Assembly (NCBI GenBank): GCA_040882565.1
Contig: JBBEAZ010000024.1
Location: forward strand, 105,662-169,661
Origin: Dehalococcoidia bacterium
GTDB lineage: Bacteria; Chloroflexota; Dehalococcoidia; SM23-28-2; RBG-16-64-32
Length of the DNA stretch: 64,000 nt
Direction: 5' to 3'
Under the pieces are notes generated by a model. That model had not been told where the DNA came from. It worked only from the letters and a program-made list of their open reading frames with translations, and ran no database searches. Position numbers and translations under genes: made by a program. Below, piece by piece: positions 1 through 19,059 of this stretch; position 1 is the stretch's first letter, and every line of letters starts with the position of its first letter.

Positions 1-440
1 GGGGTCGCCTCAGCCAGCCAGCCCCACTCACGGCCCAGGGGCGCCTCCGGCTTCGACCGCCACGCCACATCCGAGGCGATCACCCAGCCATCAGCCTTCG
101 TTACCCGCGCGAGCTCTCGCAGCGCCGGCTCCAGGCCGACGATCGACGGCGCGCCGATACAGTACGCGGCGTCCATTGCGCCGTCCCGCACCGGCAGGCG
201 CTGCCCGTTCGCCCGCACCAGCGTCACGAGATCGCGCAGGTTGAAATGCCAGAACTTGGCCGTCGCGATGTGCACGAAAGAATCGTAGGGCTCCACCGCG
301 ACAATCTGGCACGCGAACTCGCCCGCGAGGTGCGCCGCCGCCTCGCCCTTGCCCGCGCCCATGTCCAGCAGACGCGTGGCCTCGCCGGGCCGCACTCTCT
401 CCGTGATGATCCCGACCGTCCGCGCCGCGCCCGGCGTCAT
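1..440 (-). CDS. class I SAM-dependent methyltransferase. Partial: the N-terminus is at 440 and the C-terminus runs off the window start
   Basis: The minus-strand frame is open from ATG at 440 to the window edge. Translation MTPGAARTVGIITERVRPGEATRLLDMGAGKGEAAAHLAGEFACQIVAVEP contains the SAM motif I (LDxGxGxG-like). It is not in the ORF track because no stop lies in the window. Upstream in-frame GTG codons at 527 or 488 are possible alternative starts. Confidence 0.6.
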   Translation of the reverse strand, partial: MTPGAARTVGIITERVRPGEATRLLDMGAGKGEAAAHLAGEFACQIVAVEPYDSFVHIATAKFWHFNLRDLVTLVRANGQRLPVRDGAMDAAYCIGAPSIVGLEPALRELARVTKADGWVIASDVAWRSKPEAPLGREWGWLAEAT

Positions 441-560
441 GTACTCCTGCCGGGCGTAAATCCGCGCGAAGTCAGGCAATGATCGACACCGTCTGCAGCA
501 CGCGTTCGGCCAGGCGGGTGTCGCCACTGAGGTCTATGACGATCACTCGATCGAGCGGCT

Positions 561-1673
561 TCATTCGCCCGCGTATCCGGGGTAACCCGTCACCAGGATG
601 TCCTCGCCGAGCCGCTCCACCGTCACCTCGCGCAGACGGAGCGCGTCGGCCATGCGGTCAGCGCCCTCGCCCGCCACGGCGCTGGGAGCATCCGCAGCAC
701 CGACGATGATCGGCGCTATGACGGCGTGCACCTTGTCCACGAGACCGTTGTCGAAGAACGAGCCCAAGATGACACCGCCGCCCTCGACGAGGAGCGTTAC
801 AACATCCCGCCGGCCCAGCTCTTCCAGCAGCGTCCGCAGGTAAACGTGCTCGCCGTCGAGCGGCAACGCGAGCACTTCCGCGCCGCGGCCTTCGATCGCC
901 GCCCGCCAATCGGCCGGAGCGTCCGGACCGGTCGCGACCAGCGTGTTGGCCGGGCCGGCCAGCGCCTGCGCCATCGGCGGCGTGCGTCCACGTGTGTCAA
1001 CGACCACTCGCAGCGGCTGCCGTTCGGCGTCCTCGCCGCCCGGGCGCGCCGTCAGCTGCGGGTCGTCCACTACTACAGTCGAGGAGCCGACGAGGATCGC
1101 GTCGATGCGGGTCCGCAGCAGGTGCGCCCATTCGCGCGTCTCCGGCCCCGAGACCCAGCGCGAATCGCCCGACGCCGCCGCAATCTTGCCGTCGAGCGAG
1201 GCCGCGAACTTCGCGATCACAAACGGCAGGCCGGTCGTGCGGTGCTTGAAGAAGGCCTCGTTGATGCGCCGGGCTTCGGCGTCGCCTTCACCGGCGATAG
1301 TGCTGATCCCGGCGGCTTCCAGTGCCTTTTGACCGCGTCCATCTACTTTCTTGTCAGGATCGCCGATTGCGTAGTGCACCTCCACTACGCCCGCAGCGAT
1401 GATCGCCTCGGCGCAGGGCGACGTCTGCCCGTGGTGAGCGCACGGCTCGAGGGTCACGAACATCGTCGCGCCGCGCGCTCGCTCTCCCGCCGCCTCCAGC
1501 GCGACGACCTCCGCGTGCGGACCCGGCGGCGGCTGCGTCACGCCTTCACCGACCACAGTTCCGTCAGCGGCCACGACAACGGCTGCCACCAGCGGGTTCG
1601 GTGAGACGTACTGCGGGGCGTTCCGCGCCAGTTCGAGGGCGCGCTCCATTGGTTCGGGGGTCATCGCGGCCAT
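561..1673 (-). CDS. ribD: bifunctional riboflavin-biosynthesis deaminase / 5-amino-6-(5-phosphoribosylamino)uracil reductase RibD
   Basis: 370 aa. It has the CMP/dCMP-deaminase zinc motifs HAEVVAL and TLEPCAHHGQTSPC, followed by a RibD C-terminal reductase-like domain (KFAASLDGKIA, LLVEGGG). Confidence 0.9.
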   Translation of the reverse strand: MAAMTPEPMERALELARNAPQYVSPNPLVAAVVVAADGTVVGEGVTQPPPGPHAEVVALEAAGERARGATMFVTLEPCAHHGQTSPCAEAIIAAGVVEVHYAIGDPDKKVDGRGQKALEAAGISTIAGEGDAEARRINEAFFKHRTTGLPFVIAKFAASLDGKIAAASGDSRWVSGPETREWAHLLRTRIDAILVGSSTVVVDDPQLTARPGGEDAERQPLRVVVDTRGRTPPMAQALAGPANTLVATGPDAPADWRAAIEGRGAEVLALPLDGEHVYLRTLLEELGRRDVVTLLVEGGGVILGSFFDNGLVDKVHAVIAPIIVGAADAPSAVAGEGADRMADALRLREVTVERLGEDILVTGYPGYAGE

Positions 1674-1729
1674 TATCCAACCTCAGGCTCGCGCGCTGCT
1701 ATACTTTCGCTTGCGGAAGGAGCACGCCA

Positions 1730-2329
1730 ATGGCAGCAGTCAGCGAACGAATCGAGAAGATCATCCAGACGATCAAGGACGAGCGGCGACGCTTCTACGT
1801 GTTCTGCCTCTCGCTGAGCGATGAGGAACTAGCGCGGCCAGTCCCCAACAGCACGTGGACGGTAAAGGACTTCATCCCGCACCTCGGGACCCTCGATACG
1901 CAGATCATCCGCTGGTTCGAGGGCGTAGCCGCCGGCATCCCCGATGAGACGATCCGCGACTCGGAAGGCGCTCCCTTCAACATCGACAACTGGAACGACC
2001 GCGCCGTGGCCGAGCGCCGCGACTGGACAGTGGAGCAGACCCTCGACGAGGCAGAGGCCAACCGCGAGCAGTTGATTGCCACTCTTGAGAGGCTCACCGA
2101 CGAGAACATCGAGACGATCGTCCACTTCAGCGGCGACAACAAGCGCCCCGCCGCCAAGGTGCCGCTCAAGTTCTTCCTCTCCGGATGGGCGCACCACGAC
2201 GCCATCCACGTCGCGGACATGCTGAAAGCGCTCCCCGAGCGGGCCAACGACCCCGAGATGAGGGCCTGGCTCGACCACCCGGCCGTCACCTGGTACCAGA
2301 AGGCGATGGAGGGGCCGGCGGTCCGCTAG
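1730..2329 (+). CDS. DinB/MDMPI-like (DinB_2 superfamily) four-helix-bundle protein
   Basis: The start was chosen at ATG 1730 (MAAVSERIEKII), preceded by GGAAGGAG. The longer listed ORF from 1601 has a low-complexity Arg-rich leader. The W-T-V-K-D-F-I-P-H-L motif and conserved His residues are typical of DinB_2 / mycothiol maleylpyruvate isomerase N-terminal-like proteins. A paralog lies at 57375-57866. Confidence 0.6.
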   Translation: MAAVSERIEKIIQTIKDERRRFYVFCLSLSDEELARPVPNSTWTVKDFIPHLGTLDTQIIRWFEGVAAGIPDETIRDSEGAPFNIDNWNDRAVAERRDWTVEQTLDEAEANREQLIATLERLTDENIETIVHFSGDNKRPAAKVPLKFFLSGWAHHDAIHVADMLKALPERANDPEMRAWLDHPAVTWYQKAMEGPAVR

Positions 2330-2860
2330 GCACCAAGCGCATTCAATCGACGTTTCACAGCGTTCAATCGACGCTTTCGGCGGTCGTGTGTATCTGCGCT
2401 TTCGTTGTCCGGCGGGAACGGTTCGTCCGGGTCACAGTCATCGGGTTTCGTCGCCTGTCTCGACTCTGGGACTGTAGCCACCCTCATACCATACTTGCAA
2501 TTGTGGATATTCGTGACACTTTGAGAGCAATCACTTCGGACAGAGAATTGCGGAAGATGAGAGCGAAGAACTGAGCACGTATTTCGTTGAGACCGACCAA
2601 TGGCAGCGCATGTTCAAAGGTGAGGTCGGGTGCCGTTCTTGTACCGAGATGCGCTCGATATGGTTCAAGGAGCCGCCGAGTAGTGCGCGTGTCGGCTGTT
2701 ACAACGGTCAGAGCTGGTGATAATCGCTGACATTTTGACATCTGTGGCACGTAACCGCCCGACAGCCCATGGGAGCTGGCGGGAATGGCGAAGGATGAGA
2801 TTGACAGCACTCCTACAGCAGGTGCATTGTAGGGCCCACTAGGACCTAATGGGAGGACAC

Positions 2861-4027
2861 ATGTCATCTCTTACGCTGTTGGCGGGAACGAGCAATCAGG
2901 CCCAAAGTGAACGCTGTCCTTGGTGTGACAACCCGATAACCCACCGGCAGTTCGAGGAAATAAGAGCGAGAATAGCCTCCGAAGAGCGGAAGCGAGCGGC
3001 GGACGCGGCTGCCCAGTTAGAGGCGGAGCTCAACAGAGAGCGCGCGGAGGCCAAGAAGGTCGTGGAGTCAGAACGGGCCCGTCTAGCGAAGGAAGCCGAC
3101 GCCAGGGTGACCGCTGAGGTTAAGTCGGCCCGCGAAGAAGCGGCCGAGGCAAGCCGTCTCCAACTCGCCGAGATGGAGAAGGCGGCCATAGCCGCCGAGG
3201 CGCGCGTCGACGCTCTTGAAGCGGGCCAAGAAGATATGATTGCGGCCCGGCTCAAGGAGCAACGGACCGCCCTAGAGAAGGACAAGATTGACGCTTTGAA
3301 CGCCGAAAGGGCGCAGCGCTCAAAGGACGAGCTGAAGTTCAAAGAGAAGGTCGACCTCCTCCAACGTCAGCTCGAGAAGAAGACAGCGGAAGACCTAGGT
3401 GAGGGCGCAGAGGTCGACCTCTTCGAAACGCTGAGGGAGGCGTTCCCCGAGGACCTCATCACGCGAGTCGGGAAAGGTAAGGAAGGCGCCGACATTTTGC
3501 ACAGGGTCCGGGACTCTGGCGGCCACCAGTGCGGTTCAATCGTCTACGATTCCAAGAATCGCACGGCTTGGCGCAACGAATACGTAACAAAGCTTCGGAA
3601 GGATCAACTTGTAGCGAAAGCGGAGCACGCGATTCTCACATCTCTCGCGTTCCCAGCCGGCGCGAGGCAGCTTCACTTGCAGGATAGCGTGGTTGTATGC
3701 AATCCCGCGCGAGCTCGGGCAATCGTTGAATTGCTTCGCCGACATATCGTACAGACCCACACCATGCGGCTCAGCGCAGAGGCACGAGCCGAGAAGACTG
3801 CGCATCTGTACGATTTCGTAACATCAGATCAATGCGCTCAACTCCTAGAACAAATCGAGGCGCGTGCCGCAGACATTCTGACCCTTGACGTCACTGACAA
3901 GAAAGCGCACGAGTCGACCTGGAAGAAGCGTGGCGAAATGGTGCGCGCGATTGAGCGTGCTCACTTGGACCTTTCCACGGAGATTGATCGCATCATTGGT
4001 GGGCAATCGATTCGGCTCGTGAAATAG
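2861..4027 (+). CDS. zinc-ribbon / long coiled-coil protein with a C-terminal DUF2130-like region (possible PD-(D/E)xK nuclease fold)
   Basis: ATG 2861 follows GGGAGG. The N-terminus has a CPWC zinc ribbon. About 200 aa of E/K/A-rich coiled coil follow. The C-terminus has the conserved block GKGKEGADILHRV ... GSIVYDSKN ... W ... KLRKDQ, read by eye as a D / D-x-K catalytic-like arrangement. The DUF2130 assignment is from memory of the family architecture and was not searched. Confidence 0.75.
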   Translation: MSSLTLLAGTSNQAQSERCPWCDNPITHRQFEEIRARIASEERKRAADAAAQLEAELNRERAEAKKVVESERARLAKEADARVTAEVKSAREEAAEASRLQLAEMEKAAIAAEARVDALEAGQEDMIAARLKEQRTALEKDKIDALNAERAQRSKDELKFKEKVDLLQRQLEKKTAEDLGEGAEVDLFETLREAFPEDLITRVGKGKEGADILHRVRDSGGHQCGSIVYDSKNRTAWRNEYVTKLRKDQLVAKAEHAILTSLAFPAGARQLHLQDSVVVCNPARARAIVELLRRHIVQTHTMRLSAEARAEKTAHLYDFVTSDQCAQLLEQIEARAADILTLDVTDKKAHESTWKKRGEMVRAIERAHLDLSTEIDRIIGGQSIRLVK

Positions 4028-4028
4028 C

Positions 4029-4982
4029 ATGGGGGATCCGAAGGTGGTTCGCCTTGCTCCCAATCTAGACGCGTTGCAGGAACGTCGACTGGGTCGCACT
4101 GTACTTCGTACCTATCGGGCTACTCTGGACATCGACGACCTCATTCCCAACGAACGCCAACCTAGGCTAGGACCGAAGGAAGACGACGAACTACAGCGCC
4201 AAATTGAGGCCAATGAAGGAGTCTTCGAGCCCTTGCTGGTCGAACCTCACCCTGATGTGCCAGACAAATTCAGAATAATTGACGGCGAGCGACGTTGGAC
4301 GAACTCACTCGCGCTTGTGCACCAGGGGAAAGAACAGTATCGACAGCTGCCCGTCGAGATAACAGATAGAACACTCTCTGACGATGAACGATTGAGGGCG
4401 TGGATTTACATTCATCGCCAGCGCAAAGAATGGGACGCCAAAGAGAAAGAGATGGTGGCCTACAGACTCGTACAGTTAATGGGACGAGCCAGCGCCGCCA
4501 GTATATTGGGCATCACCGTTAGAGAACTGGATAAGCTGGTCGACATATTCGAGCTGTCTGAGCGGTTTGACAATCTGCGGGACCCGAGCGCAGCTATCAC
4601 CTGGGCACGTGAACTGAATGGCGTAAGCAAGAAGCTTCTAACCCCATCGATCGTTGATGCCGTCGTAGGCAAAGTCGGCGACAAGCGCATAACGAACTCT
4701 AAGGATATTCGCAAACTTCGTGTGATCCTTCGCGATCCAGTAGCCAAGGCGAACTTCCTGTCGGATGAGGGTGATATTGATTCCGCGTTGCTGCGAATTG
4801 CCCCGGACGAATCCAGTAAGGACGAACGTGACATCCTCACTCAGCTCGACTTCGCGATGGAGTCCATCCGACGTGCTCCGTGGACTACGCTTGAACAACA
4901 CCGAGGAGACGACCGCTTGATTCGACGCATCGATGAAGCCGAGGAGCTCCTTAGGGCGCTACGCGAGAAGTTGTCGAGGTAG
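4029..4982 (+). CDS. ParB/Srx (ParB N-terminal CTPase / nuclease-like) domain protein with a central HTH
   Basis: The start lies 1 nt after the upstream stop (TAG 4025-4027, ATG 4029), suggesting translational coupling. EPLLVEP ... FRIIDGERRWTNS matches the ParB box II GERRxRA arginine-finger motif. AASILGITVRELDKLV is HTH-like. The C-terminal 130 aa are helical and of unknown function. The gene has about 52 % GC. Confidence 0.8.
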   Translation: MGDPKVVRLAPNLDALQERRLGRTVLRTYRATLDIDDLIPNERQPRLGPKEDDELQRQIEANEGVFEPLLVEPHPDVPDKFRIIDGERRWTNSLALVHQGKEQYRQLPVEITDRTLSDDERLRAWIYIHRQRKEWDAKEKEMVAYRLVQLMGRASAASILGITVRELDKLVDIFELSERFDNLRDPSAAITWARELNGVSKKLLTPSIVDAVVGKVGDKRITNSKDIRKLRVILRDPVAKANFLSDEGDIDSALLRIAPDESSKDERDILTQLDFAMESIRRAPWTTLEQHRGDDRLIRRIDEAEELLRALREKLSR

Positions 4983-5054
4983 GGTCCCGCCGTTAGGAGC
5001 CGCCGGGCAATATGCGGCGCGTCAACTTACGCGAGCGTCAGCGTTTGAGAAAGA

Positions 5055-5225
5055 GACCGTCGAGGACGCCACGCAGGAGCTGTCGCATTGACAAGCCTTG
5101 GCGTCGAAGTTCCGGAGGGAGCGCGACTTGGCGGCCGCTGGTCCGCGAATCTTGCGGCCTGGTTGTCGCGGACTTAGAGTAGGGCGCGATGACGGGGAGA
5201 CCGGGGATTCCCCCTCGCGCAGAGG
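5055..5225 (+). repeat. copy A of an imperfect ~145-170 bp direct repeat (partner at 18186-18330)
   Basis: It aligns at about 85 % identity with 18186-18330. Shared blocks are GTCGCAT, AAGTTCCGGAGGGA, GCGACTT and GGTCCGCGAATCTTGCGGC..GTCGCGGACTTAG..GATGACGG. It has nested hairpins (GTCCGCGA/TCGCGGAC and CCGC-gaatctt-GCGG). Confidence 0.7.
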
Positions 5226-5390
5226 CTTCGGGCGCGAAGTCGAAAGGGGTATGTGGCACGGCCACGCCAGTGTCTCAGGACCCTCTCGGCGGCGAGGTGG
5301 TGGCAATGCGATGGGCTGGCTGTATCGCCCTCGGCCCAAGGGGGGTTACCTCGACCGGCTCATCCCCCGTTACCACTTGGACTGTCTGTC

Positions 5391-5756
5391 TTATGGAACG
5401 TCTTTCTTGGTTTGATTCAGCTTCTCCAATACCGCAGCGAGGGCGTCGATTGTTGCGTCGACGTCGAGAGCTCTGCGGCGGGCATTGTCGTGTATCCAAG
5501 CTAGAGCCTCGGACATTGGTTCACCCTCATCAACGCTGAATTCGTCAATCTGTACGCCCTGTTCGTTGGCGATGGACAAGGTATAGGTGGCACTAAAGGT
5601 AGATTTTAGATCACCGGTGATCCTGACCGAGGCAGGGCCAAAGTTGGCGTCGAAGATGCTATAGTCCGGTTTCGCAATTAGCGCGCGCCATTCTAGCTTG
5701 TCGCTGGCTTCAGCTAGATTCTTAACGATCGATTCGTATCTTGGTGGTATGGGCAT
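5391..5756 (-). CDS. hypothetical protein (121 aa)
   Basis: It is a clean ORF on the low-GC islet with no recognisable motifs (MPIPPRYESIVKNLAEASDKLEW...). Confidence 0.45.
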   Translation of the reverse strand: MPIPPRYESIVKNLAEASDKLEWRALIAKPDYSIFDANFGPASVRITGDLKSTFSATYTLSIANEQGVQIDEFSVDEGEPMSEALAWIHDNARRRALDVDATIDALAAVLEKLNQTKKDVP

Positions 5757-5766
5757 CCTATTTCCT

Positions 5767-6270
5767 TTACGCTTGGCGAGCGTCGAACTGCATTCTAGTC
5801 GATAGGGCGGTGAGAAAAGAAGAAAGTTGCGTTAGGGAGACATGCACGCTCGTCAGTTGTGAATCCTTGGGGTGCGACTCACCTAGTGTGGCCTTGAGTA
5901 GCAGTTTCTCCATATCCTCTACCTGCTCGATGTGCGAGTTGAATGTTTGGGTATCGTCTGCCGGGATGCCAGCTCCTGCGAGCTTTGCGAGGGCTTCCCT
6001 TAGATCGCTCATGCGACCGAGAGCGGCGCCATACTGCCGGTTTCGGACGTGCTCTTGGAGGTTAGTAATGATTCGAACAGCGTTAGTCAGGTCAGTCAGT
6101 TGAAGCTGGCGTGCGAGTTGTCGGGTTGTCGCGTAGACGGTTTCGGCTCTCTTTGCGACAGTATCGGCAGCACTGCGAATCTGCCAGACGGCAACTATCA
6201 GCGCGACGGCTGTCGCCCCTATCCCAGCCAATGCGATGATGTCACGCCAGCCGTCATTCAGAAATCCCAT
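5767..6270 (-). CDS. hypothetical membrane-anchored coiled-coil protein (about 167 aa)
   Basis: The start was moved to Met 6270 (MGFLNDGWRDIIALAGIGATAVALIVAVW, one TM helix). The upstream part of the listed ORF (to 6438) only translates the tRNA-like remnant (..GLEPPTPG..). Confidence 0.5.
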   Translation of the reverse strand: MGFLNDGWRDIIALAGIGATAVALIVAVWQIRSAADTVAKRAETVYATTRQLARQLQLTDLTNAVRIITNLQEHVRNRQYGAALGRMSDLREALAKLAGAGIPADDTQTFNSHIEQVEDMEKLLLKATLGESHPKDSQLTSVHVSLTQLSSFLTALSTRMQFDARQA

Positions 6271-6356
6271 TTCACCGTATGATAATGGTTTGTAGGCACC
6301 CGTGATCTTGGGCGCACAGCGCTCACAACCTGAGATACGGACGCACACCGCCAGCA

Positions 6357-6410
6357 GGATTAGGTTTCCTAAACCGGGTGTCGGCGGTTCGAGTCCGTCC
6401 CGGGGCACCA
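6357..6410 (+). pseudogene. tRNA-Arg(CCU)-like 3' fragment: anticodon arm to CCA, with no matching 5' half. Likely an att-site remnant
   Basis: TAGGT-TTCCTAA-ACCGG / GTGTC / GGCGG-TTCGAGT-CCGTC / CCGGGGC-A-CCA. It has a canonical T-arm and U33/A37 flanking the CCT anticodon. The required 5' acceptor strand GCCCCGG is absent upstream. Confidence 0.5.
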
Positions 6411-6618
6411 CAATTTCGTGCCTGTAGCGAAACCCCATCGACCTACGGTCGGCGCCGGTCCGGGCGAGCCCGCGACCCTCGGAGTGGAAGGAATATCTGC
6501 CCGCTATAAGTCAAGTTACGTTGATTGTGAGGTTGGTTTGGTCATACCCATTCGCGTTCATGACGTAGATCTCAGAGAGTTCGGGTCGGACTAGCGCGGC
6601 GCTTACAATACCCCTGAC

Positions 6619-7158
6619 TTGGCACCCATTACCTATCGCCCCTTTGTTCCCGCTGACCTCCCGCGCATCCGCGACATAGATCGCAGCGAGCGCATCGGCG
6701 TCCTCTATATCCAGCACGGAACACAGCCAGAGGAACGCCGCGGCGACTTCGACTCCCCCAACTGGCTCACGGAAGGCGACGGCGAGCACTCTCTTGCGGC
6801 CCAGCAAGCGCACGTCGAGGAGTTGCTGGCGTCAGGCGCTGTTGCCCTCGGCGCTTTCGATGGCGATCGCCTGGCTGGCATCGGCGTTCTTGTCCAGCAC
6901 CTGCGGCCCGGCGTCGCGCAGCTCGCCTACCTGCACGTGAGCAACGGCTATCGGGCCAGCGGCATCGGCCAGCGGCTGTCCGAGGACCTCGACCACATCG
7001 CCAGGGAAGGCGGCGACAGCGAGATCGTCGTCTCCGCTACGCCGTCACAGAACACCGTGCGTTTCTACACGGGCCGCGGCTACCAGCCGATGGCCGAGCC
7101 GCTCCCCGAACTCTTCGCGCTGGAGCCGGAGGACATCCACCTCCACAAGAAGCTGTAG
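6619..7158 (+). CDS. GNAT family N-acetyltransferase
   Basis: 179 aa, apparent TTG start. The acetyl-CoA motif region is GIGQRL .. VRFYTGRGY. Confidence 0.8.
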   Translation: MAPITYRPFVPADLPRIRDIDRSERIGVLYIQHGTQPEERRGDFDSPNWLTEGDGEHSLAAQQAHVEELLASGAVALGAFDGDRLAGIGVLVQHLRPGVAQLAYLHVSNGYRASGIGQRLSEDLDHIAREGGDSEIVVSATPSQNTVRFYTGRGYQPMAEPLPELFALEPEDIHLHKKL

Positions 7159-7258
7159 CCCGCCGAGGGCGGTATCATCGCAGCGATGAGACAACAAAAT
7201 GACCCTATTCTTCCGAGAAGTAGGGCCGTAAGCGAGGCAAGGCCCCGGCGAACGACGG

Positions 7259-7576
7259 TTAACGGGCTGTGATGGGCTCCACGCTGCCGTCGGCCGCGAT
7301 GCGCGACGCCAGGATGACCGTCGCCCCGAAGAGATCGCCGTCTTCTTCGATCGGTTCGCCGGCGTTGAGGCCGACGCGGACGTTCAGCGGCTCGCCCTCG
7401 CGGTCGGCAAAGGCGCGTTGGAGCCCGTTGGCGTCGCCTCCTCGGAGCCGTTGACAGTCGCCGGATCCCCCGCCAACGGACGAACCCCCAGGGCTGACGG
7501 CCGCGCTCCACCCACCGGCTGACGGTGCGCCGGTCGATCCCCAGCCTCCGTGCTGCTTCTGAAGCGTTCCCGCCAC
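7259..7576 (-). pseudogene. possible remnant of a class III adenylyl/guanylyl cyclase (C-terminal ~45 aa of the cyclase homology domain only)
   Basis: VRVGLNAGEPIEEDGDLFGATVILASRIAA resembles the C-terminal cyclase motif (IRIGIHTGEVV..GD.FG..VN.AARL). The N-terminal two-thirds of the domain are missing. Confidence 0.3.
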
Positions 7577-7752
7577 ACTCTCTTCAGGTTTCGATGATTT
7601 CTCGTATCTCTGTTCGCTGCATCCGTCATTCTAAGCACCTGTGCCATAAGTCGTGAGAGAACAAGAGTTAGTTGACTAATTCTGCGGCCACTCCTATACT
7701 TAACCCACTTCGGAAAAGGATCGAGGCTCGCGGGCCGGGGGAGGGGTTTAAG

Positions 7753-9480
7753 ATGCTCAGGTCGATTTCGCTCGGCGTTCTTGCCGTAGTACTTGTCGTT
7801 GTCGCCGCCTACTTGGACGGCGCCGGGGACAGAAGCGAGGCCGCTCCCGATCCTGACGTTATTCCGGGCCGCTACATTGTCACGCTGACGCCCGGTATCG
7901 CCGCTCATGCCTTCGCTCAAGAGACGGGTTCCCGGCTCGGTTTTCGAGCGGACGTCGTGTATTCCCACGCTCTCAACGGGTTTGCGGCCAACCTGCCAGC
8001 TCAGGCGGCGCAAGCCCTTGCCCGCGATTCCGGGGTTCTCTCCATCGAACCAGACCGCATCGCCCGCGTCACCGATCAGATTCTGCCAACGGGCATCGAC
8101 CGCATCGACGTAGACGAAAATAGCACTGCGGGAATCGCCGGCGACGGTGGTGCTATGGACGTTGATATCGCCATCATCGACACAGGCATCGACGTCGATC
8201 ACCCGGACCTGAACGTGGTTGGTGGCGCTCGATTCTCCGGGTCGGGGTTCGCCATCTTCTGGACTTGCGACAATGGCAGCGGCTCGTTTGACGACGATAA
8301 TGCGCACGGCACCCACGTCGCCGGCACCGCGGCTGCCAGGGACAACTCCGTGGGAGTAGTGGGAGTGGCGCCCGGCGCCCGCCTGCACGCGGTCAAGGTG
8401 CTGACATCGGGGGGCACAGGTGCCTACTCGTGCATCATTATGGGGATCGACTGGGTGACCGCGCGAGCCGACACGATCGATGTCGCGAACATGAGCCTCG
8501 GCGGCGGCAGCAGCAGCGCCCTCTGCAACGCCATCCAGAACTCGGTCAACGCCGGAGTCGTCTATGCCGTCGCCGCGGGCAATGAGATCGTAGACGCTGA
8601 AACCCGCAGCCCCGCGAACTGCGCCCCTGTGGTGACGGTGTCAGCTATCGCCGACTTTGACGGAAAGCCGGGAGGTCTGCAGGACGAGACGATCGCGTTC
8701 TCATCCTGCACGGAGACCGAAGACGACTCGTTTGCCTGTTTCAGTAACTTCGGTTCGACCATCGAGGTGGCGGCGCCGGGAGTGAAGATCCTGTCCACGC
8801 TCCCGGGCGGCGGCACCGGGACCGGCTCAGGTACAAGCATGGCCAGTCCCCATGTGGCAGGGGCGATCGCCCTGTACAAGGTCGCGAACCCCGCTTACAA
8901 CACCAGTCATGGTCCCACCGTCATCGCCGACATGACCGCGGACGGCTGGACGGTCCCGCAGGACAGCCCCTGTGGCTTTGACGGTGACCCGGACAGCTAC
9001 CCTGAGCCGCTGATCTACGGCGGCTCAAGCTGCCTCGGTGGCGCGACACCCACGCCCTCGCCGACTCCATCGCCCACGCCGACACCCACGGCGTCACCCG
9101 AGCCCACGCCGACGCCAACACCTACCGCGTCACCGGCACCCACACCAACACCGACGCCGGCGCCGGACGGAACGATGCACGTGGCAAGCCTCAGCGGCAT
9201 AAGCATCAGCCAGGGTTCAACCTGGGTCGCGCAGGTAACGATAACGGTCCACGATTCAGCCAACAACCCGGTGGCCGATGCAACTGTTTTCGGATCCTGG
9301 AGCCTGGGCTCGCCGTCCTCCGGCAACTGCACGACGAACGGCGCCGGGCAATGTACGCTCACTAGCGGCAGCATCCCTAAACGGAATTCGTCCGTCACGT
9401 TTACCGTCACAAACGTCACGTACACGACACTCGTCTACGATCCGAGTGGAACAACTTCAATAACCATCGCCAAGCCGTAG
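7753..9480 (+). CDS. secreted S8 subtilisin-like serine protease with I9 propeptide, Pro/Thr linker and C-terminal beta domain
   Basis: The start was chosen at ATG 7753 after GGGGAGGGG, followed by a signal peptide. The catalytic triad motifs are DTGIDVDHPDL, HGTHVAGT and GTSMASPHVAG. The linker is TPTPSPTPSPTPTPTASPEPTPTP. Confidence 0.9.
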   Translation: MLRSISLGVLAVVLVVVAAYLDGAGDRSEAAPDPDVIPGRYIVTLTPGIAAHAFAQETGSRLGFRADVVYSHALNGFAANLPAQAAQALARDSGVLSIEPDRIARVTDQILPTGIDRIDVDENSTAGIAGDGGAMDVDIAIIDTGIDVDHPDLNVVGGARFSGSGFAIFWTCDNGSGSFDDDNAHGTHVAGTAAARDNSVGVVGVAPGARLHAVKVLTSGGTGAYSCIIMGIDWVTARADTIDVANMSLGGGSSSALCNAIQNSVNAGVVYAVAAGNEIVDAETRSPANCAPVVTVSAIADFDGKPGGLQDETIAFSSCTETEDDSFACFSNFGSTIEVAAPGVKILSTLPGGGTGTGSGTSMASPHVAGAIALYKVANPAYNTSHGPTVIADMTADGWTVPQDSPCGFDGDPDSYPEPLIYGGSSCLGGATPTPSPTPSPTPTPTASPEPTPTPTPTASPAPTPTPTPAPDGTMHVASLSGISISQGSTWVAQVTITVHDSANNPVADATVFGSWSLGSPSSGNCTTNGAGQCTLTSGSIPKRNSSVTFTVTNVTYTTLVYDPSGTTSITIAKP

Positions 9481-10317
9481 ACAGCGGGACTTGGATTCGG
9501 GGCGGACTTCGGTCAGGGGCTTGGGGTGCTTCAGCCGAAATCGTATCTGGAGCGGGAGAGGGGCTCGCCCTACAGGTCCCGCCGCGGCGGAAACCCGCGA
9601 CCCTCTGCTTGGAAGGCTCGGACCTGGAAAAAGCGCCGAAAATGAGGATTTCAGATACGAAATTGCGACCAAGATGCCACACTCAGCGGGGTGGTAGCAG
9701 CGGTGTGCCCCTACCGAGGAGACTCACGCTATTTCGTTGTATTTGTCCTCCATTTCGTTCGAATTCGCAGGTGGATTCTAACATGCGCTAAAAGGACCCT
9801 TGCGCCAATCATGGCATCACGAACAGCCCGGCGCGTCCCGACTCCACCTGCGATTCATCTTGCGTCCGGGCTAGGCCGACCGTGCTAGCGCGACAAGCCC
9901 GCTGAGCGATTTGCACCGATCCTCGAAGAGTTCGCTAGTGGACGTTCGTGCGATCCCGCGCGCCGAGAGTTTCGCTTGAAGGTAACATCCGCCAATACAC
10001 CGGTGCCAACGGTTCCGGCGTGCAGTTGTTGATCACCGACCAGCTTCGTTGGGCTGGTCGTGATGTTCGTGGTAGAGAGCGCGAACTGCACGATGCTCGA
10101 CCCGTCCATGGCCTGGAAGTAGCAGCCAATCGCGGGGAGAGGTGGTACAGGGGCCCGTCGTGGCGCCGGTCAGAGGGCCGGCCCGCTGCCAGTTAGAATA
10201 CTTCGCGCAACACAAAGCAAGTAGGCCACAAGCAATGGTTGTAGCAGGCCAGCCGTTCCGGCTCGATCGCGGCTCAGTGCGACCGGTAGAAGGCTGCCCC
10301 CCGCTCCCCCACCATGT

Positions 10318-11388
10318 CTACTTCTCCAGCAAGAACAGTTGATGGTAGGGATGCTCGACGGGAAGCTTCTCGAAGTGAGAGAAGCCGGCCTCCCGCGCCA
10401 GCTCCCGGGCTGTTCCCTCCCCCACTACGTTGCCCAGCCCCTCGCCACCGTGGGCTAGCGAGACTGTCATGCAGTGCATAACGCTGGTGGCGTAGAGGAG
10501 TCGCCCCATGGGGTTGATGTTGTCCTCAAGGCGGTCGGACGCGTTGGCCTCCGACCACAGGAAGGCGCCGTCGGGTTTGAGGGCCCGGCAGACGCCGGCC
10601 AGGGCACCGCGCGGGTTGGCCATGTCGTGGATGCAGTTGAAGGCGATGATGAGATCGAAGTGGCCCTTGTGGGGGATATCCTCCGCCGCCGTGAACTCGA
10701 ACGATACCCGTTCGCCGAGGTCGGCATTGGCGGCGTGTCGCCGTGCCCGGCGGATAGACTCCTCATCGATGTCATAGCCAACAAAGCGTGAGTTGAGGTA
10801 GGCCTTGGCGAAGGGGATGAGGGCCTGACCGGCGCCGCAGCCGACTTCCGCGACGTCCGCCCCGGCCTTGACCCTCTCGAACACCTCTCCAAGGGCCGGG
10901 AGCCACTGGGTCGCCACCGCGCTCTCGTAGCCGGGCGCGAAGAGGCGTTGGATGGCCTCGACGATCTCGGGTCCAAACTCGGCAAAGGCGATGCCGCCAC
11001 CGTTCTTGAAAGCTTCCATCAGTCTCGGCAGTTGCCGGACGCACGCTTGGGCGTAGAGGAAACCACCGCCCATGAAGCGGGGACTATCATCGTCTGCCAG
11101 CACCGCCACCTGTTCAGGACTGAGCCGGAAGGTGTGATCCCGAGGATTGTAGTCGATATATTCCGATGCGGCCATGGCGGCGGCCCACTCGCGTATGTAG
11201 CGCTCGTTCAGGCCGGTGCGGTCCGCCAGGTCCTGCGAGGTCATTGGCACGCCGTCAGCCAGCGCCCGGAAGATGCCCAGCCGGTCGCCGATGTAGGCGA
11301 GCGCGATGATGTGGGCGCCGCCCCAGTCCTGGAGCACGCGGGTGGCAAACTGGGCGACCTTGCCAGGATCTGCGGATCGCTGTGACAC
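10318..11388 (-). CDS. class I SAM-dependent O-methyltransferase with an N-terminal dimerisation (wHTH) domain
   Basis: EVGCGAGQALIPFA is the SAM motif. The N-terminal helix is VLQDWGGAHIIALAYIGDRLGIF. The start was set at GTG 11388 to avoid a 130-nt overlap with the upstream gene. The listed 11541 start adds a low-complexity leader. Confidence 0.8.
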   Translation of the reverse strand: MSQRSADPGKVAQFATRVLQDWGGAHIIALAYIGDRLGIFRALADGVPMTSQDLADRTGLNERYIREWAAAMAASEYIDYNPRDHTFRLSPEQVAVLADDDSPRFMGGGFLYAQACVRQLPRLMEAFKNGGGIAFAEFGPEIVEAIQRLFAPGYESAVATQWLPALGEVFERVKAGADVAEVGCGAGQALIPFAKAYLNSRFVGYDIDEESIRRARRHAANADLGERVSFEFTAAEDIPHKGHFDLIIAFNCIHDMANPRGALAGVCRALKPDGAFLWSEANASDRLEDNINPMGRLLYATSVMHCMTVSLAHGGEGLGNVVGEGTARELAREAGFSHFEKLPVEHPYHQLFLLEK

Positions 11389-11410
11389 GGGACCGTTATG
11401 CCAGGCGGCC

Positions 11411-12562
11411 TTAGCGGGGCGTCCCGGCAGTCGCTGGCTGGCGCTCGATCCTGTCCGCGAAGTAGGGCATGACCAGGCGCCCGAAGCGCTCCGCCTCCTC
11501 GTCGTGGGGATAGCCGGAGAGGCAGAACTCCGTGCAGCCAAGGTCGATGAATTCCTGGATGGTCTCGGCTACCTGCTCCGGGTTGCCCACGATGGCGACG
11601 CCGGCGCCTGGCCGCACAGTGGCGACGCCGCTCCAGAGGTGCTTGCCAATCCGGAGGTCTTCAGTCTGCGCCAGCTCCTTCATCCTAGTGTTCGCCTGCG
11701 ACTCCCTCCACATATTTTGAACGACGTCCTTTAGCAATTGAGGCGCACCGGCGATGAGGGCGTCGGCGTCCCGCCACGCCTTTTCCTCCGTCTCGCGGAC
11801 CAGCACCTGGAGTCGCATGCCGAAAGCGAGGTCGTCCCCGCGGCCGTACTTTGCGGCAACGCGCTTCACTTCGGCGACCTCTTCGGCGATCCGCTCGGGA
11901 GTGTCGCCCCAGAAGAGGTAGACGTCGGCGTGCCTGGCGCCGACCTCTCTGGCGGCGGGCGAGATACCGCCGATGTAGAAGCGCGGATGGGGCTTCTGGT
12001 AGGGACGGGGCTGGACGACGGCGTTCTCCACCTGGTAGTACTTGCCTTTGTGGGTCACGGGCCCGTCTTCAGTCCAGAGCCGCTTCATCAGCGTCACCGT
12101 CTCGTCCATGACTTCGTAGCGCTCGTCGTGTTCGTAGAAGAGGCCTTCGGCGGCCTGCTCGGCGCCGCCGGGCCCGGCGATGAGGTTGATACAGACGCGC
12201 CCCTGGGTGAGCTGGTCGAAGGTGGTGAACATCTTGGCCATGAGCGTGGGCAGCATGTAGCCGGCGCGCACCGCCACCAGCGGCTTCAGGCGCTCCGTGC
12301 GGGCCGCGACCATGGCGCAGGCGATCCAGGCCTCGTAGCACATGGTCTGGACGGGAACGAGGGCGTACTCGAAGCCGGCGCTCTCGGCCGCCTGCGCGAC
12401 CTTTGTGAAGTGGTCCAGGCTGGGCGGGATGTTTGCGGCGCCATCGCCGAACGCCCTCGTGTCACCAGCGGTCGGGATGAACCAGCCGAAGCGAAGGCGG
12501 CCGTTGTCCTTTGTTCCCGTGTCGTCTACCGATGGGTGAACCATAGCTCCACGTTCAGCCAT
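11411..12562 (-). CDS. LLM-class flavin-dependent monooxygenase (luciferase-like; SsuD/alkanesulfonate-monooxygenase-like)
   Basis: The start was set at Met 12562 (MAERGAMVHPS), 13 nt after the tauD stop. The TIM-barrel LLM signature regions are FGWFIPTAGD and GGAEQAAE. The upstream 70 aa of the listed ORF are Arg/Ser low-complexity. Confidence 0.85.
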   Translation of the reverse strand: MAERGAMVHPSVDDTGTKDNGRLRFGWFIPTAGDTRAFGDGAANIPPSLDHFTKVAQAAESAGFEYALVPVQTMCYEAWIACAMVAARTERLKPLVAVRAGYMLPTLMAKMFTTFDQLTQGRVCINLIAGPGGAEQAAEGLFYEHDERYEVMDETVTLMKRLWTEDGPVTHKGKYYQVENAVVQPRPYQKPHPRFYIGGISPAAREVGARHADVYLFWGDTPERIAEEVAEVKRVAAKYGRGDDLAFGMRLQVLVRETEEKAWRDADALIAGAPQLLKDVVQNMWRESQANTRMKELAQTEDLRIGKHLWSGVATVRPGAGVAIVGNPEQVAETIQEFIDLGCTEFCLSGYPHDEEAERFGRLVMPYFADRIERQPATAGTPR

Positions 12563-12575
12563 AAGAGCTGACCGG

Positions 12576-13406
12576 TCAGCCGGCCAGGTAGGGGCGCTCG
12601 CCCACGGTGGTGACGCGGTAGCCGGTGCGAGTCTCGGGGAAGTAGTCCCAACTGGCGTAATGCTGGACGCAGCGGTTGTCCCATAGCGCCACAGAGTTCT
12701 CCTCCCAGCGGAAGCGCACCTGGCACTCGACCTCGTACGCGACGTGGTCAAACAGCATCTTGAGGATCGCGTCACTCTCCCGTCTGGTGACGCCTTTGAT
12801 GCGGGTGGTGAACCCGGAATTTATGTATAGCGCCCGCCGACCGGTCAACGGGTGGGTGCGCACCGCGGGATGAATGGCCGAGGGGGTCTTCGTGTCGTTC
12901 ATGCTATAGCGTCCGCCGTACACCTGATCCGAGGTGTGGATAGCCTGGCGGGCAGAGAGGAATTCCTTCATCGGGTCTGAGAGCAGGTCGTAGGCGGCGT
13001 ACATGCTGGACCAGAGCGTGTCGCCGCCGACCGAAGGGATAACCTCGACTCGCAGCATAGACAGCGCTGGTGGTTGCTCCTCGCAAGAGACATCGGTGTG
13101 CCAGGTTTCCCCCGCCGTGTACTTTGAGTCGGCGTCGGTGTGAACCAGCAGCACCTCAGGGTAGCCCTCTGGGCCCTTCGCTGCCGGGTGTACGTGCAGG
13201 GTACCCAAGCGCCGGCCAAGTTCCACCTGCTGATCCAGCGTCATCGCCTGATCACGGAAGAATAGTACGCCCCGTTCGGCTGCCAACTGCCTGATCTCCT
13301 CGATAGCCGCGTCGTCCAGATCGAGCAGGCGCAAGCCTCGCAGTTCGGTGCCGATGTGGTGGTTATAGTCAATGCGTTCAACACGAGTCAGGATGCCCGT
13401 CGTCAT
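12576..13406 (-). CDS. tauD: TauD/TfdA-family Fe(II)/2-oxoglutarate-dependent dioxygenase (taurine dioxygenase-like)
   Basis: Start ATG 13406 is preceded by AAGGAGG. It has the HTDVS (HxD) motif and WDNRCVQH. Confidence 0.85.
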   Translation of the reverse strand: MTTGILTRVERIDYNHHIGTELRGLRLLDLDDAAIEEIRQLAAERGVLFFRDQAMTLDQQVELGRRLGTLHVHPAAKGPEGYPEVLLVHTDADSKYTAGETWHTDVSCEEQPPALSMLRVEVIPSVGGDTLWSSMYAAYDLLSDPMKEFLSARQAIHTSDQVYGGRYSMNDTKTPSAIHPAVRTHPLTGRRALYINSGFTTRIKGVTRRESDAILKMLFDHVAYEVECQVRFRWEENSVALWDNRCVQHYASWDYFPETRTGYRVTTVGERPYLAG

Positions 13407-13923
13407 TTCAACCTCCTTAGGGAAACTCCGCGATGCGGACGGTATCACACAGGTGCGCAGGTGTCCAGCGAATGTACTCGTTCGGTACATATCCCACAGT
13501 CTTTGCCCTCCGGCGCCGGACTCGAGAAGTACGACTCTATGCGAGACAATCCTCCGCTGTTCCGACATGGCCCAGAGATCGCTTGGCAGCGGGGCCGCTG
13601 GCGGGCCGTAGGCCTTCAAGTCCGCACGCGTCCAAGACGCCAAACCAAACGCCCTGGGCGAGTCGATGCGGGCCGATATACGGGCTTGCGTTGGGGGAGC
13701 GGATTGAGTTTTGGTTAAGGGCTAGACACCACTGGCGAAGAGCATCTGTTTCGTAGGTGGCACCGGCCGGCTGGCCGTCTCGGCTGGGTAACGCTTCCGA
13801 AGGGTTAACGTCTACCTCTACATGCAAGCATCAACGGGTTATTCTCCGCGGGTCAGGCCACCAGCGTTCCATGGGCGCAACCAGCACGACCCGATATTCC
13901 AGCTGAAGGGCAATCTTTAACTA

Positions 13924-16900: not shown

Positions 16901-17001
16901 TGCCGGCAGCGGAGTTTGAACAGTTGCTCCGCGAGAGCATCGCGACAGTCGTCGGTGCACTCGGGGCAGGGGCCGGACGAAATAGCAGCCGCAACTCATA
17001 A
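13924..17001 (+). CDS. membrane sensor PAS(x4)-GGDEF-EAL c-di-GMP turnover protein
   Basis: 1025 aa. The N-terminus is multi-TM. Four PAS blocks follow. The GGDEF motif is RNGGDEFTLLL. The EAL domain has EALLRWRHP and DDFGTGYSSLSYLKRFPIDEVKID. Confidence 0.9.
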   Translation: MQSRVQHRSEAGIDEAATDKVFAAETDITFVRLAVIAFSTVVYVFLFDKSGSIQWLAYGTLAIAWIYGVSVLALQPHRRHPALLSSYFTSTSDAALITAWIIATGGYDSPFYVLWYVSIVAIAYRYTPRETMIVSCLYAASYLALVAALGETSDRTTDLVVRIGYIFLVGAMSSLLSREALGQSRARVEARRAAELAAAAEARFRELLESAPDPVIIVNEQGSVALVNAEAERAFGYSKEDILGGGVLMLIRQTDHERARAEWSAYTSGVPRPQTIGGIDLVARRKDGSEFVVDVRLSPLKTEEGILFTIVMRDISERKRAEEALHESEARFRALTENASDFILILDPHGVLQYTSPSVGRMLGYGEDELLGKNGFEFVHPDDASELAQILAMRLQTRGIGEPIEFRVLHSNGAWRLFEAIGNFDLLDDPAVGGIVLNARDITERRRAEEALRDSETQYRTLVEGASDHILILQNGKTVYRNPAYERLIGYSSTETAGRSFLEFVAPEDRAIVEEKYRKRLRGEPATEQYEVHIMTRDGGRALMEVKPRVIQYHGEPATMVLMRDITERRQAEETIRRLAHHDALTGLPNRMLFEDRLNVALAQARRSKEMLAVLFLDLDRFKLVNDTIGHAGGDELLRQVAADLEEVVRDGDTVARNGGDEFTLLLPRIHSKQDAIEIAERILRVLGEPKCLRGQEFTVTTSIGISMYPKDGRTEQELMANADTAMYRVKERGRNNYQLYTPAMKADVLGRLALERDLRRALEHEEFVLHYQPILDVGTGEIVAAEALLRWRHPTRGLVYPNDFIPFAEEHRLLAEIEEWVLSEACRQRRHWRQEGYPEVRMSVNLSAQQLQRKELPALVSRILKQSGLAGVHLQIEITEGAMLDNADPVIRTLRHLRGMGVRISVDDFGTGYSSLSYLKRFPIDEVKIDRSFVRDLTVDPKDATIVSTIITMAHDLELDVVGEGVESEDQLRFLKDRGCDACQGYLFSKPVPAAEFEQLLRESIATVVGALGAGAGRNSSRNS

Positions 17002-17271
17002 GAAGTTGGTTTGTTCTCGGCTCTGTCCGGTCGGCGCGCGGTTTCTCCCGGTTTGAAATACAGCTTCTACGCCAACGCGATCCCGACAGATTGGACGTGC
17101 AGTACGATGGCCGCAGCGCCGCGGAGGCGGGCGTCCCCAACCAGAGCGGATGTGAGACGCAAACTTCCTCCGGCGCTTCTGTTTGTCTAACTGTCTTCTT
17201 CTCAGAGCCAGCGAGCGGTGGGTCCGCCGGCCACCCGCTATACTTTTGGGCCAGCGCTCTGATTCCAGGAG

Positions 17272-17769
17272 GTGCTCTTGCCAGACAAACTTACCTCAGC
17301 GCAAGTTGAACGCTTCCTGCGGGGCCGCCACATAGCTGTGCTCACTACCGTCAACCCCAACGGCGCGCCGCTTCAGACCCCCGTCTGGTATCTCTACCGC
17401 GACGGGCTCATTTACATTCGCACCAACTCTCTAAGTGCCAAGGTGCGCAATGTTCGGCGCGATCCCCGAGTCAGCCTCTGCGTCCAGGATGAGCGGCCAC
17501 CGTACCGCGGCGTAACAGTCACAGGTGTCGTCGCAAGGATTGAGCCAGACCGGCGAGAGATATCGACGGTGATGTCTCGGAATTACCTCGGCATGGTCGC
17601 GGGCTTCTTCTATTTGCGACTTCGCACTCGCAACGAGATCGAGGACGATCCTGACATGATGCTAGTGATCAAAGCGCAGCGAAAACACGGCTGGGACTAT
17701 CGCCCACGCACTCCCCTGGTCGGCCGCGTCTGGCTGGCCTTCAAGCGCGTGCTGCCGCCTTGGCTGTAA
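17272..17769 (+). CDS. pyridoxamine 5'-phosphate oxidase family protein (likely PPOX-class F420-dependent)
   Basis: GTG start after CCAGGAGG. HIAVLTTVNPNGAPLQTPVWY is the PNPOx-like split-barrel signature. Confidence 0.8.
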   Translation: MLLPDKLTSAQVERFLRGRHIAVLTTVNPNGAPLQTPVWYLYRDGLIYIRTNSLSAKVRNVRRDPRVSLCVQDERPPYRGVTVTGVVARIEPDRREISTVMSRNYLGMVAGFFYLRLRTRNEIEDDPDMMLVIKAQRKHGWDYRPRTPLVGRVWLAFKRVLPPWL

Positions 17770-17775
17770 CGCGAC

Positions 17776-17940: not shown

Positions 17941-18122
17941 TTCCGGCGTGCCTCCTACGAGTCAAACTTGAGTGAGATCGAGATGAGATGCGGGTGATGC
18001 TTGCGTGATCTCGACTCGGCCAGGCACGCTCTGCAAAAGAGAGGGTGGCAGCGGTTCACCAGACGACTAAACGGGTCACCCCGTTTGCGCCAAACCGCGA
18101 ATTCGTATCTGAAAATGGGGTT

Positions 18123-18330: not shown

Positions 18331-18434
18331 CCCTTCGGCCGGACGGGGCACACGAGCACCCGCATCGTCTTCGGCGCCACCCTCAGTCACGCCACCGCAG
18401 GTCAGAAATCCGTTACGCTCTCGTCTCAGTCCTT

Positions 18435-19049: not shown

Positions 19050-19059
19050 GGCTTACCCA

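Follow-up and report, generated by a model that had tools for sequence, protein, structure and literature searches.

We analyzed a 64,000-nucleotide (nt) stretch of chromosomal DNA from an uncultured Dehalococcoidia bacterium (Chloroflexota), referred to here as the window. Near its left end, between a RibD-DinB gene pair and a GNAT acetyltransferase gene, the window carries a low-GC islet at positions 2330 to 6450. The islet holds, from left to right, a non-coding stretch, a gene for a DUF2130 protein, a gene for a ParB-like protein, a GC-rich spacer and, on the opposite strand, genes for two hypothetical proteins of 121 and 167 amino acids (aa), and it ends at the 3' part of a tRNA-Arg(CCU) gene (Table 1). 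We propose that the islet probably represents the decayed, integrase-less remains of horizontally acquired DNA, whose right end is the attachment (att) scar of a tRNA-targeting integrative element. Positions 1 to 7190 of the window are 100% identical to the metagenome-assembled genome (MAG) contig JBBDPA010000027.1 (GCA_040876785.1), which ends at window position 7190, and the window gene at 42950-44479 sits on contig JBBDPA010000022.1 of the same MAG.

A preliminary description of this DNA had noted that GC content drops after the DinB-like gene and recovers after position 6450. This was borne out by scans of GC content, GC content at third codon positions (GC3) and tetranucleotide usage, in all of which the deviation at 2330-6450 was the strongest in the window. 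The GC content of 2330-6450 was 0.567, compared with 0.638 in the remaining window, and it was the minimum among all 4.1-kb intervals of the 64 kb (mean, 0.632; standard deviation, 0.023). The tetranucleotide distance to the window average was likewise largest here, at 0.024 versus approximately 0.013 to 0.018 elsewhere. The four islet genes had GC3 values of 0.57 to 0.67, while those of the other window genes were 0.70 to 0.90. Since GC3 is low in the islet genes and high in the GNAT gene, the right compositional boundary can be placed between 6270 and 6619, where the tRNA fragment is found.

Homologs of the flanking DinB protein, 70 to 79% identical, were placed on a 2.66-Mb contig (L007) and on contigs L008-L010 and L011/L012. 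Gene order in these relatives is dCTP deaminase, methyltransferase, RibD, DinB, approximately 190 nt, a small gene (h54), RDD and a gene for a 272-aa protein (h272), and the window counterparts of the last three genes lie at 22046-23561. The islet genes were absent from the syntenic RibD-DinB locus in all relatives found (L007-L012). DNA homology to L011 ends at window position 2309 and restarts at 21659, and over the relatives the left limit of synteny falls at approximately 2309-2317. Therefore, relatives do lack the islet, but the segment that they lack measures 19.3 kb (approximately 2310-21658) rather than 4 kb, and the islet is just its left end. The remaining 15 kb of this segment (6.4-21.6 kb) has host-like GC3, only the first 4 kb being compositionally foreign, and carries ordinary metabolic and signaling genes (GNAT, S8 protease, HTH-methyltransferase, luciferase-like oxygenase, TauD, PAS-GGDEF-EAL, PNPOx-like, RibD_C and flavin monooxygenase). 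An 11-nt imperfect repeat at the two ends of the 19.3-kb segment (GCACCAAGCGC/GAACCAAACGC; 2331-41 and 21661-71) was dismissed as within chance by a hand estimate. The composition of the islet, its absence from relatives and the plasmid relatives of its DUF2130/ParB-like gene pair, described below, identify it as foreign DNA.

At the right end of the islet, positions 6363-6410 agree at 47 of 48 bases with an intact tRNA-Arg(CCU) that has an encoded CCA and lies on a Dehalococcoidia MAG contig (L004, 2542-2618). The match covers positions 29 to 76 of that tRNA, with a lone mismatch at position 43. The preliminary description had reported a 54-nt tRNA-Arg(CCU) 3' fragment with a perfect T arm and no 5' half. 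The fragment, with its anticodon arm, acceptor strand and CCA, is confirmed, but the identity extends over 48 nt, and the T stem contains one G-U pair. The absence of the 5' half was upheld: the six bases upstream of 6363 show no match to the tRNA, and a 5' acceptor strand is lacking. No intact cloverleaf was detected at 6335-6410, either by ARAGORN or by Rfam, which gave no match at the gathering score anywhere in the window. The fragment, which occurs once in the 64 kb, begins within the anticodon stem, on its 5' strand, at a canonical sublocation of tRNA-targeting islands. Logan unitig-based contigs from two runs of the same study break within it, one ending at the discriminator base, 6407 (L001), and the other starting at 6381 (L003); L003 spans window position 7190, at which the NCBI MAG contig ends. 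Such breaks are expected if the community contains further copies of approximately 30 nt of the fragment, for instance in the intact gene, at a place that the breaks themselves do not indicate.

The two opposite-strand genes next to the fragment have relatives in a second context. The 167-aa protein had just two homologs in 5.8 billion clusters, P0242 (84% identical) and P0243 (74%), both encoded on JGI contigs (L039/L040). The 121-aa protein had just 2 representatives at E<1e-10 among 1.84 billion and no Pfam, NCBIfam or PADLOC match, and neither gene had plasmid matches. DNA homology between the window and L039/L040 runs from 5317 to 6400 at 70 to 87% identity by blastn (78% over 5778-6400) and spans a non-coding block of 46 nt, the two genes and the entire arm upstream of the 167-aa gene; with the tRNA 3' half, these make up a unit of approximately 1.1 kb. 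The 46-nt block is 87% identical to L039/L040, above the adjacent 121-aa open reading frame (ORF) at 70%. It contains the anticodon-arm-like sequence GGTTACCTCGACC (5344-5356), whose three mismatches to the Arg fragment put the likeness within chance, and the idea that the block is a terminator was rejected, as it showed no terminator pattern and no significant fold. The arm (TGGTTTGTAGGCACC...GGCGCACAGCGCT) is the probable site of the promoter of the 167-aa gene and would be the element-side (P) arm under an att model.

In L039/L040, the columns aligned with the Arg fragment read ...GTCTCCAAAACCGTAGGTCGGGGGTTCGAATCCCTCCGCCCCTGCCA, which, judged by its bases, appears to be the 3' part of a tRNA-Trp, with the anticodon CCA, the acceptor strand CGCCCCU, G73 and an encoded CCA. 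This part closely resembles the tRNA-Trp of Escherichia coli. ARAGORN detected no intact tRNA on L039 or L040. Identity to a tRNA begins at position 29 in the window and at position approximately 30 in L039/L040. The sequences left of the fragment are homologous between L039/L040 and the window, and those that follow the CCA are unrelated, with a UbiE-type methyltransferase gene in L039/L040 and a tRNA-Gly relic and the GNAT gene in the window. The same arm and the same break point, combined with a different tRNA and a different outer flank, suggest that these are the distal (attR) ends of related integrative elements with different tRNA targets. The comparison also shows that the two opposite-strand genes are linked to the tRNA fragment, as the preliminary description had supposed in tentatively assigning them to the same cargo. 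The longest ORF reading at this position (5767-6438, minus strand; 223 aa) runs through the tRNA fragment and was followed by the Logan gene call. We consider this reading unlikely, since the 167-aa product from 6270 is backed by the conservation of its start in L039/L040 and by the NCBI call.

Table 1. Features of the islet and its surroundings (window coordinates)
Feature	Position	Strand	Remarks
RibD	561-1673	-	GC3 0.82
DinB_2	1730-2329	+	GC3 0.89
Left non-coding part of islet	2330-2860		GC 0.548; starts directly after the DinB_2 stop codon
DUF2130 protein	2861-4027	+	388 aa; alternative start at 2849 gives 392 aa; GC3 0.67
ParB_N-like protein	4029-4982	+	317 aa; GERRW motif; GC3 0.59
GC-rich spacer	4983-5316		No gene or RNA recognized; overall GC of 4983-5390 0.657, host-like
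46-nt non-coding block	5317-5362		Left limit of homology to L039/L040
Hypothetical 121-aa ORF	5391-5756	-	117-aa counterpart in L039/L040; GC3 0.57
Hypothetical 167-aa ORF	5767-6270	-	N-terminal hydrophobic helix; GC3 0.58
Arm between 167-aa gene and tRNA fragment	6271-6362		Homology to L039/L040 reaches the fragment edge
tRNA-Arg(CCU), 3' 48 nt	6363-6410	+	tRNA position 29 to encoded CCA; proposed displaced (attR-type) fragment
Anticodon loop TTCCTAA	6366-6372	+	
3' anticodon stem	6373-6377	+	
Variable loop	6378-6382	+	5 nt
T arm GGCGG/TTCGAGT/CCGTC	6383-6399	+	
Acceptor 3' strand CCGGGGC	6400-6406	+	
A73	6407	+	
CCA	6408-6410	+	
Degenerate tRNA-Gly(UCC)-like relic	6465-6505	-	55 nt downstream of the Arg fragment
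GNAT acetyltransferase	6619-7158	+	GC3 0.82
S8 protease	7672-9480	+	
tRNA-Gly(UCC) 3' fragment	9548-9617	-	Starts at position 29; 24-nt insertion in T loop
tRNA-Arg(UCU) 3' fragment	18123-18178	-	Ends in CCA

The left part of the islet is occupied by a different pair of genes. The first product matched DUF2130 (PF09903; E 4e-29; 102 bits versus a cutoff of 26.7) and carries a CPxC...H zinc-knuckle-like motif near its N terminus, then a coiled coil, and a nuclease-like domain of the PD-(D/E)XK type at its C terminus. In an alignment of the window protein with two metagenome copies and a plasmid copy, the motifs CPxC...H, GEGAExDLFE, GADI and YDSKN were invariant. DUF2130 has been assigned to the PD-(D/E)XK superfamily (PMC3424549), to which the 2861-4027 protein accordingly belongs by sequence, and a nuclease activity is predicted for it. 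The second ORF follows after a 1-nt gap, and its product matched ParB_N (PF02195; E 1e-6; 28.8 bits versus a cutoff of 26.3) and the Caulobacter ParB of PDB entry 6t1f (E 1e-5), with the GERRW motif aligned. It scored below the full-length partition models (33 bits versus 58 for NCBIfam parB_part; 41 versus 279 for PRTRC_parB). A ParA-like gene is absent from the islet, and the partner of the ParB-like gene is the DUF2130 gene.

The same partnership is found on alphaproteobacterial plasmids, where the ParB-like gene also follows a DUF2130 gene. The ParB-like protein is 72 to 74% identical to plasmid proteins of Aminobacter, Skermanella and Rhizobium; at the DNA level, 1.4 kb align at 70% identity. 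On plasmid pMET2 of Aminobacter sp. NyZ550 (WP_154386598.1/WP_185910476.1), gene order is as in the window and the ParB-like protein is 74% identical, but the two ORFs overlap by 8 nt instead of being separated by a 1-nt gap, and the DUF2130 protein has 535 aa and a longer coiled coil, compared with 388 aa in the window; the neighbors are ArdC-like, toprim and large helicase genes. On a Rhizobium plasmid, the upstream gene is interrupted by IS5, and the pair lies beside a DNA methylase gene and a multiubiquitin/ThiF cluster. A large protein database held 3932 homologs of the ParB-like protein, many of them 72 to 92% identical, and at this level of protein identity the pair occurred in sources named Dehalococcoidia, Microbacterium, Acidimicrobiales and Dormibacteraeota as well as on alphaproteobacterial plasmids. 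The nearest homologs (L015-L017; 86 to 92% protein identity) have different neighbors, and their DNA homology to the window is confined to the two ORFs, at 2830-4981. We propose that the pair is a separately travelling two-gene cassette. The islet is thus not one 4-kb element but a mosaic, in which two or more modules of separate history have come together.

No function has been described for the DUF2130/ParB-like pair, and the literature on DUF2130 is sparse. PADLOC-DB v2 held no defense-system model for the islet proteins, the DUF2130 protein giving just a weak coiled-coil match to LmuB (E 1.5e-5; 21 bits). PHROGs yielded generic ParB-domain similarity for the ParB-like protein and nothing for the DUF2130 protein. 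The ParB-like protein had no relative in phage records (including by tblastn) or in IMG/VR, and a phage origin was rejected on this ground and because neither relatives of the 167-aa and 121-aa proteins nor the arm motif were found in IMG/VR. Between the coding parts of the islet, the left non-coding stretch (2330-2860) gave no Pfam match in any frame and the 4983-5390 spacer none in six frames; the spacer was also rejected as a structured RNA, having a fold z-score of -0.9 and no Rfam match.

The 19.3-kb segment holds three further tRNA pieces, none of them intact (Table 1). The two tRNA-Gly pieces bracket the GNAT and S8 protease genes. A motif beside tRNA ends, CAGATACGAwTTCG, has four matches in the window, compared with 0.57 expected; it lies at 9536-9549 (minus strand), 9652-9665 (plus) and 18098-18111 (minus) and is also found by tRNA-Gly genes or fragments in L020, L023 and L032. 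The tRNA-Gly fragment at 9.5 kb has one copy on either side, the two being inverted relative to each other, and their hairpin is a weak, subthreshold match to the S-adenosylmethionine (SAM) riboswitch (22 bits). The GNAT gene region (6590-7193) is 91 to 98% identical in DNA to seven JGI contigs (L018-L022, L024 and L032), all with different flanks. The shared block extends approximately 28 nt upstream and 7 to 35 nt downstream of the gene, and its left junction, TAGCGCGGCGCTTACAATACC, falls at the same base in all contexts, as would be seen with a discrete mobile gene cassette. In L022 and L032, an intact tRNA-Gly(UCC) lies 13 nt from this junction. In L023, two direct 60-nt 3' fragments of tRNA-Gly(CCC) (495-554 and 2324-2383; 88% identical) bracket 1.8 kb with a 114-aa ORF and a GNAT gene, and three copies of a 46- to 65-nt repeat (599-673, 1149-1223 and 2117-2162) lie between genes in a cassette-array-like layout; these repeats were not found in the window. 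Taken together, the tRNA-half pieces of the window and of the GNAT contigs indicate that this lineage carries many small segments bounded by tRNA halves.

Two more patches of the window interrupt gene pairs that are adjacent in relatives. A second low-GC patch (39958-42157; approximately 0.58), with four ORFs without Pfam matches (123, 162, 81 and 128 aa), lies between an alpha/beta hydrolase gene and an AAA_16 gene, which are adjacent in L008-L010. Between Rex and MreB, adjacent in L008/L009, region 45488-49908 holds an Acetyltransf_3 gene and three ORFs without Pfam matches (214, 261 and 754 aa) at a GC content of approximately 0.59 to 0.60.

On the reading that we favor for the islet, an element whose att site carried a tRNA copy from the anticodon stem to the CCA would have been recombined with a tRNA-Arg(CCU) gene at the anticodon-loop sublocation by a tyrosine-type integrase that has since been lost. 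Integration would have restored a complete tRNA at one end, while the displaced 48-nt 3' fragment would have come to lie at the opposite end, adjoining the element arm that bears the 167-aa and 121-aa genes. A later deletion or rearrangement may have removed the integrase gene and the regenerated tRNA and, in the same event, may have joined the fragment end to the DUF2130/ParB-like cassette and the 3' end of DinB. The tRNA-Gly(UCC) fragment at 9548-9617, which has the same start at position 29, and the direct tRNA-Gly(CCC) fragments of L023 are in keeping with an att origin. The preliminary description had called the fragment the orphan att site of a tRNA-targeting element. The tRNA-Trp fragment of L039/L040 and the start in the anticodon stem lend this support, although the islet is a mosaic and the integrase is a step that we infer. 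It had also spoken of an element that appears eroded, in an islet of about 4 kb. The lack of an integrase agrees with erosion, but there are at least two modules, and they form the left end of the 19.3-kb segment.

Several observations weigh against this history. No integrase or integrase remnant was detected by Pfam from 2 to 22 kb in all ORFs and in the frames of the non-coding stretches, including the gaps 2330-2860, 4983-5390 and 6411-6618. ARAGORN found no tRNA in the 64 kb or in L001-L003, which include a further 10 kb to the left (L002), so that the preliminary statement that neither an integrase nor a full tRNA is present at the left end holds by both tools. There was no significant second copy of the fragment: the best alignment in 2330-2860 was matched by 24% of random windows, and a gapped alignment at the junction (2300-2350) was matched by 11 to 15% of them. 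A pattern of anticodon loop, T arm and acceptor strand (TTCCTAA-N10-GGCGGTTCGAGTCCGTCCCGGGGCA) was used to scan 185,579 species representatives, collections that do not include the window's own genome, and it gave a single match, in another species; the intact gene was thus recovered from L004 alone. There, it follows ffh-rpsP-rimM-tRNA-Ala and is not near RibD/DinB or GNAT, which suggests that the window site may never have carried the gene. The same pattern had no match in JGI metagenomes or IMG/VR, and IMG/VR contained neither the arm motif nor relatives of the 167-aa, 121-aa and ParB-like proteins. Finally, the arm-plus-fragment unit is known from just two contexts. Since the searches brought up neither a remnant of an integrase nor a second att copy nor a partner tRNA, the integrase-mediated origin stays conditional, as do the order of events and the route by which the scar would have reached a locus that has no tRNA gene in relatives. 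The partner tRNA-Arg(CCU) probably lies elsewhere in the window's own genome.

The absence of a tRNA from this locus in relatives, and the different location of the gene in L004, would be explained if an element-borne attP-type block had been inserted at the 3' end of DinB by secondary-site or illegitimate insertion, at a place that was never a tRNA site. Such an event might have used the sequence GGCACCA, which is situated precisely on the left junction (2329-2335) and is identical to the final 7 nt of the fragment (6404-6410). This heptamer occurs nine times per 64 kb on the given strand; if every 7-mer of the fragment is admitted as a candidate, its presence at the junction carries no significance, and the junction alignment is likewise not significant. 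Moreover, a crossover at the 3' end leaves unexplained why the block starts in the anticodon stem, and an intact attP predicts that the window and L039 remain homologous rightward of the block, which they do not. The relatives that lack a tRNA here are themselves distant (70 to 79% identity in DinB), and the whole 19.3 kb differs. We therefore regard this explanation as unlikely.

We also considered that the approximately 1.1-kb units may be tiny integrase-less cassettes that are moved in trans by a chromosomal or element-borne integrase and are able to switch their tRNA target. The GNAT cassettes bracketed by tRNA-Gly fragments (L023 and window 6465-9617) would then belong to the same family. 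Separately, the DUF2130/ParB-like pair, which retains more than 70% protein identity across at least four phyla and plasmids, could be an uncharacterized DNA-targeting module with a role in defense or maintenance. Taken together, these two proposals seem to us rather improbable.

That the fragment is simply a native tRNA-Arg(CCU) gene upstream of GNAT, which lost its 5' part by insertion or deletion without site-specific recombination, appears quite unlikely. Such a history would account for the lack of a second copy and of an integrase, and in its favor a degenerate tRNA-Gly relic lies 55 nt downstream of the fragment, and L022 and L032 have an intact tRNA-Gly by GNAT. However, L039/L040 have a tRNA-Trp broken at the equal position beside a homologous arm, two random truncations of this kind being implausible, and the break at position 29 is a canonical att boundary. 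An 8-mer of the D loop, CAGCAGGA, stands 4 nt upstream of the fragment and was matched or beaten in 76 of 5000 random windows (P of approximately 0.015 taken alone). It was rejected as a D-loop remnant, since L039 has CAACGGGG in its place, which shows that the 8-mer is arm sequence.

It is very unlikely that the 167-aa/121-aa unit has kept the tRNA 3' half because this half has a function within the unit, for instance as a regulatory or tRNA-mimic element. The position of the half relative to the start of the 167-aa gene is conserved in two contexts, and the unit has no recombinase of its own, but these two contexts are all that are known. Between them, the half has been swapped wholesale for that of another tRNA while the arm was conserved; in addition, it lies on the strand opposite to the 167-aa gene and gave no covariation or RNA-family signal. 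An assembly chimera, in which the islet and GNAT were misjoined at a repeated tRNA sequence, is extremely unlikely even though Logan contigs break within the fragment (end at 6407, start at 6381), because the NCBI MAG contig (L002) and the window span the joint identically, the repeat of just 48 nt is shorter than a typical sequencing read, Logan breaks are expected there at k=31, and the independent JGI contigs L039/L040 show an equal arm-plus-fragment architecture.

We compared the islet with known classes of integrated elements. Islander tRNA/tmRNA islands are tyrosine-integrase islands bounded by a regenerated tDNA and a displaced 3' fragment; an anticodon-centered att geometry is seen in 2083 of 3919 of them, and 3760 carry a 3' tDNA fragment (PMC4383910). 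The concept of island sublocations (anticodon loop or stem, T loop, 3' end) has been summarized previously (bioRxiv 10.1101/2020.11.02.365908). Like these islands, the islet has a displaced 3' tDNA fragment that extends to the CCA and starts at a canonical sublocation in the anticodon stem, together with foreign cargo absent from relatives. Unlike them, it lacks an integrase, and neither the 64 kb nor the 10 kb further left contains an intact cognate tRNA; it also measures only approximately 4 kb, is a mosaic and sits at a locus without a tRNA gene in relatives. Cis-mobilizable elements (CIMEs) are decayed ICE (integrative and conjugative element) or IME (integrative and mobilizable element) remnants that keep their att sites but have lost the genes for integration and transfer, and their accretion has been described (PMC5704250). 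The islet resembles CIMEs in being small, in lacking integrase and transfer genes, in having an att-type tRNA fragment and in lying within a composite accretion of scarred segments. In contrast to CIMEs, which are flanked by attL and attR as direct repeats, it has one recognizable att-like end. On strict tests, then, the islet is neither an Islander island nor a CIME, and the most fitting description is that of a decayed remnant which functions, or formerly functioned, in the manner of such islands.

Within the same class, Dehalococcoidia, tandem islands of Dehalococcoides integrate site-specifically at the 3' end of the tmRNA gene ssrA and so share with the islet the 3' end of a small-RNA gene as well as a setting in a high-plasticity region (PMC3146451). 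The window differs from them: its scars derive from three or more distinct tRNAs and lie in both orientations, and no intact gene is close by. The ssrA islands reportedly encode integrases of their own and directly adjoin the intact gene.

A decayed tRNA-targeting island is a common and known kind of feature, of which the islet adds one more example. For annotation, it marks a horizontally acquired patch, and its tRNA fragment explains why k=31 unitig assemblies break at its right end and warns against calling the 223-aa ORF. The strong conservation of the DUF2130/ParB-like pair across phyla and plasmids is a lead worth following, and so are the recurrent small segments bounded by tRNA halves. 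More broadly, the recurrence of 3' fragments of several tRNAs around single genes hints at an active, poorly described integration system in this metagenome-only group. If the mini-cassette proposal were true, this Dehalococcoidia lineage would build its flexible regions from mini-cassettes bounded by tRNA att sites.

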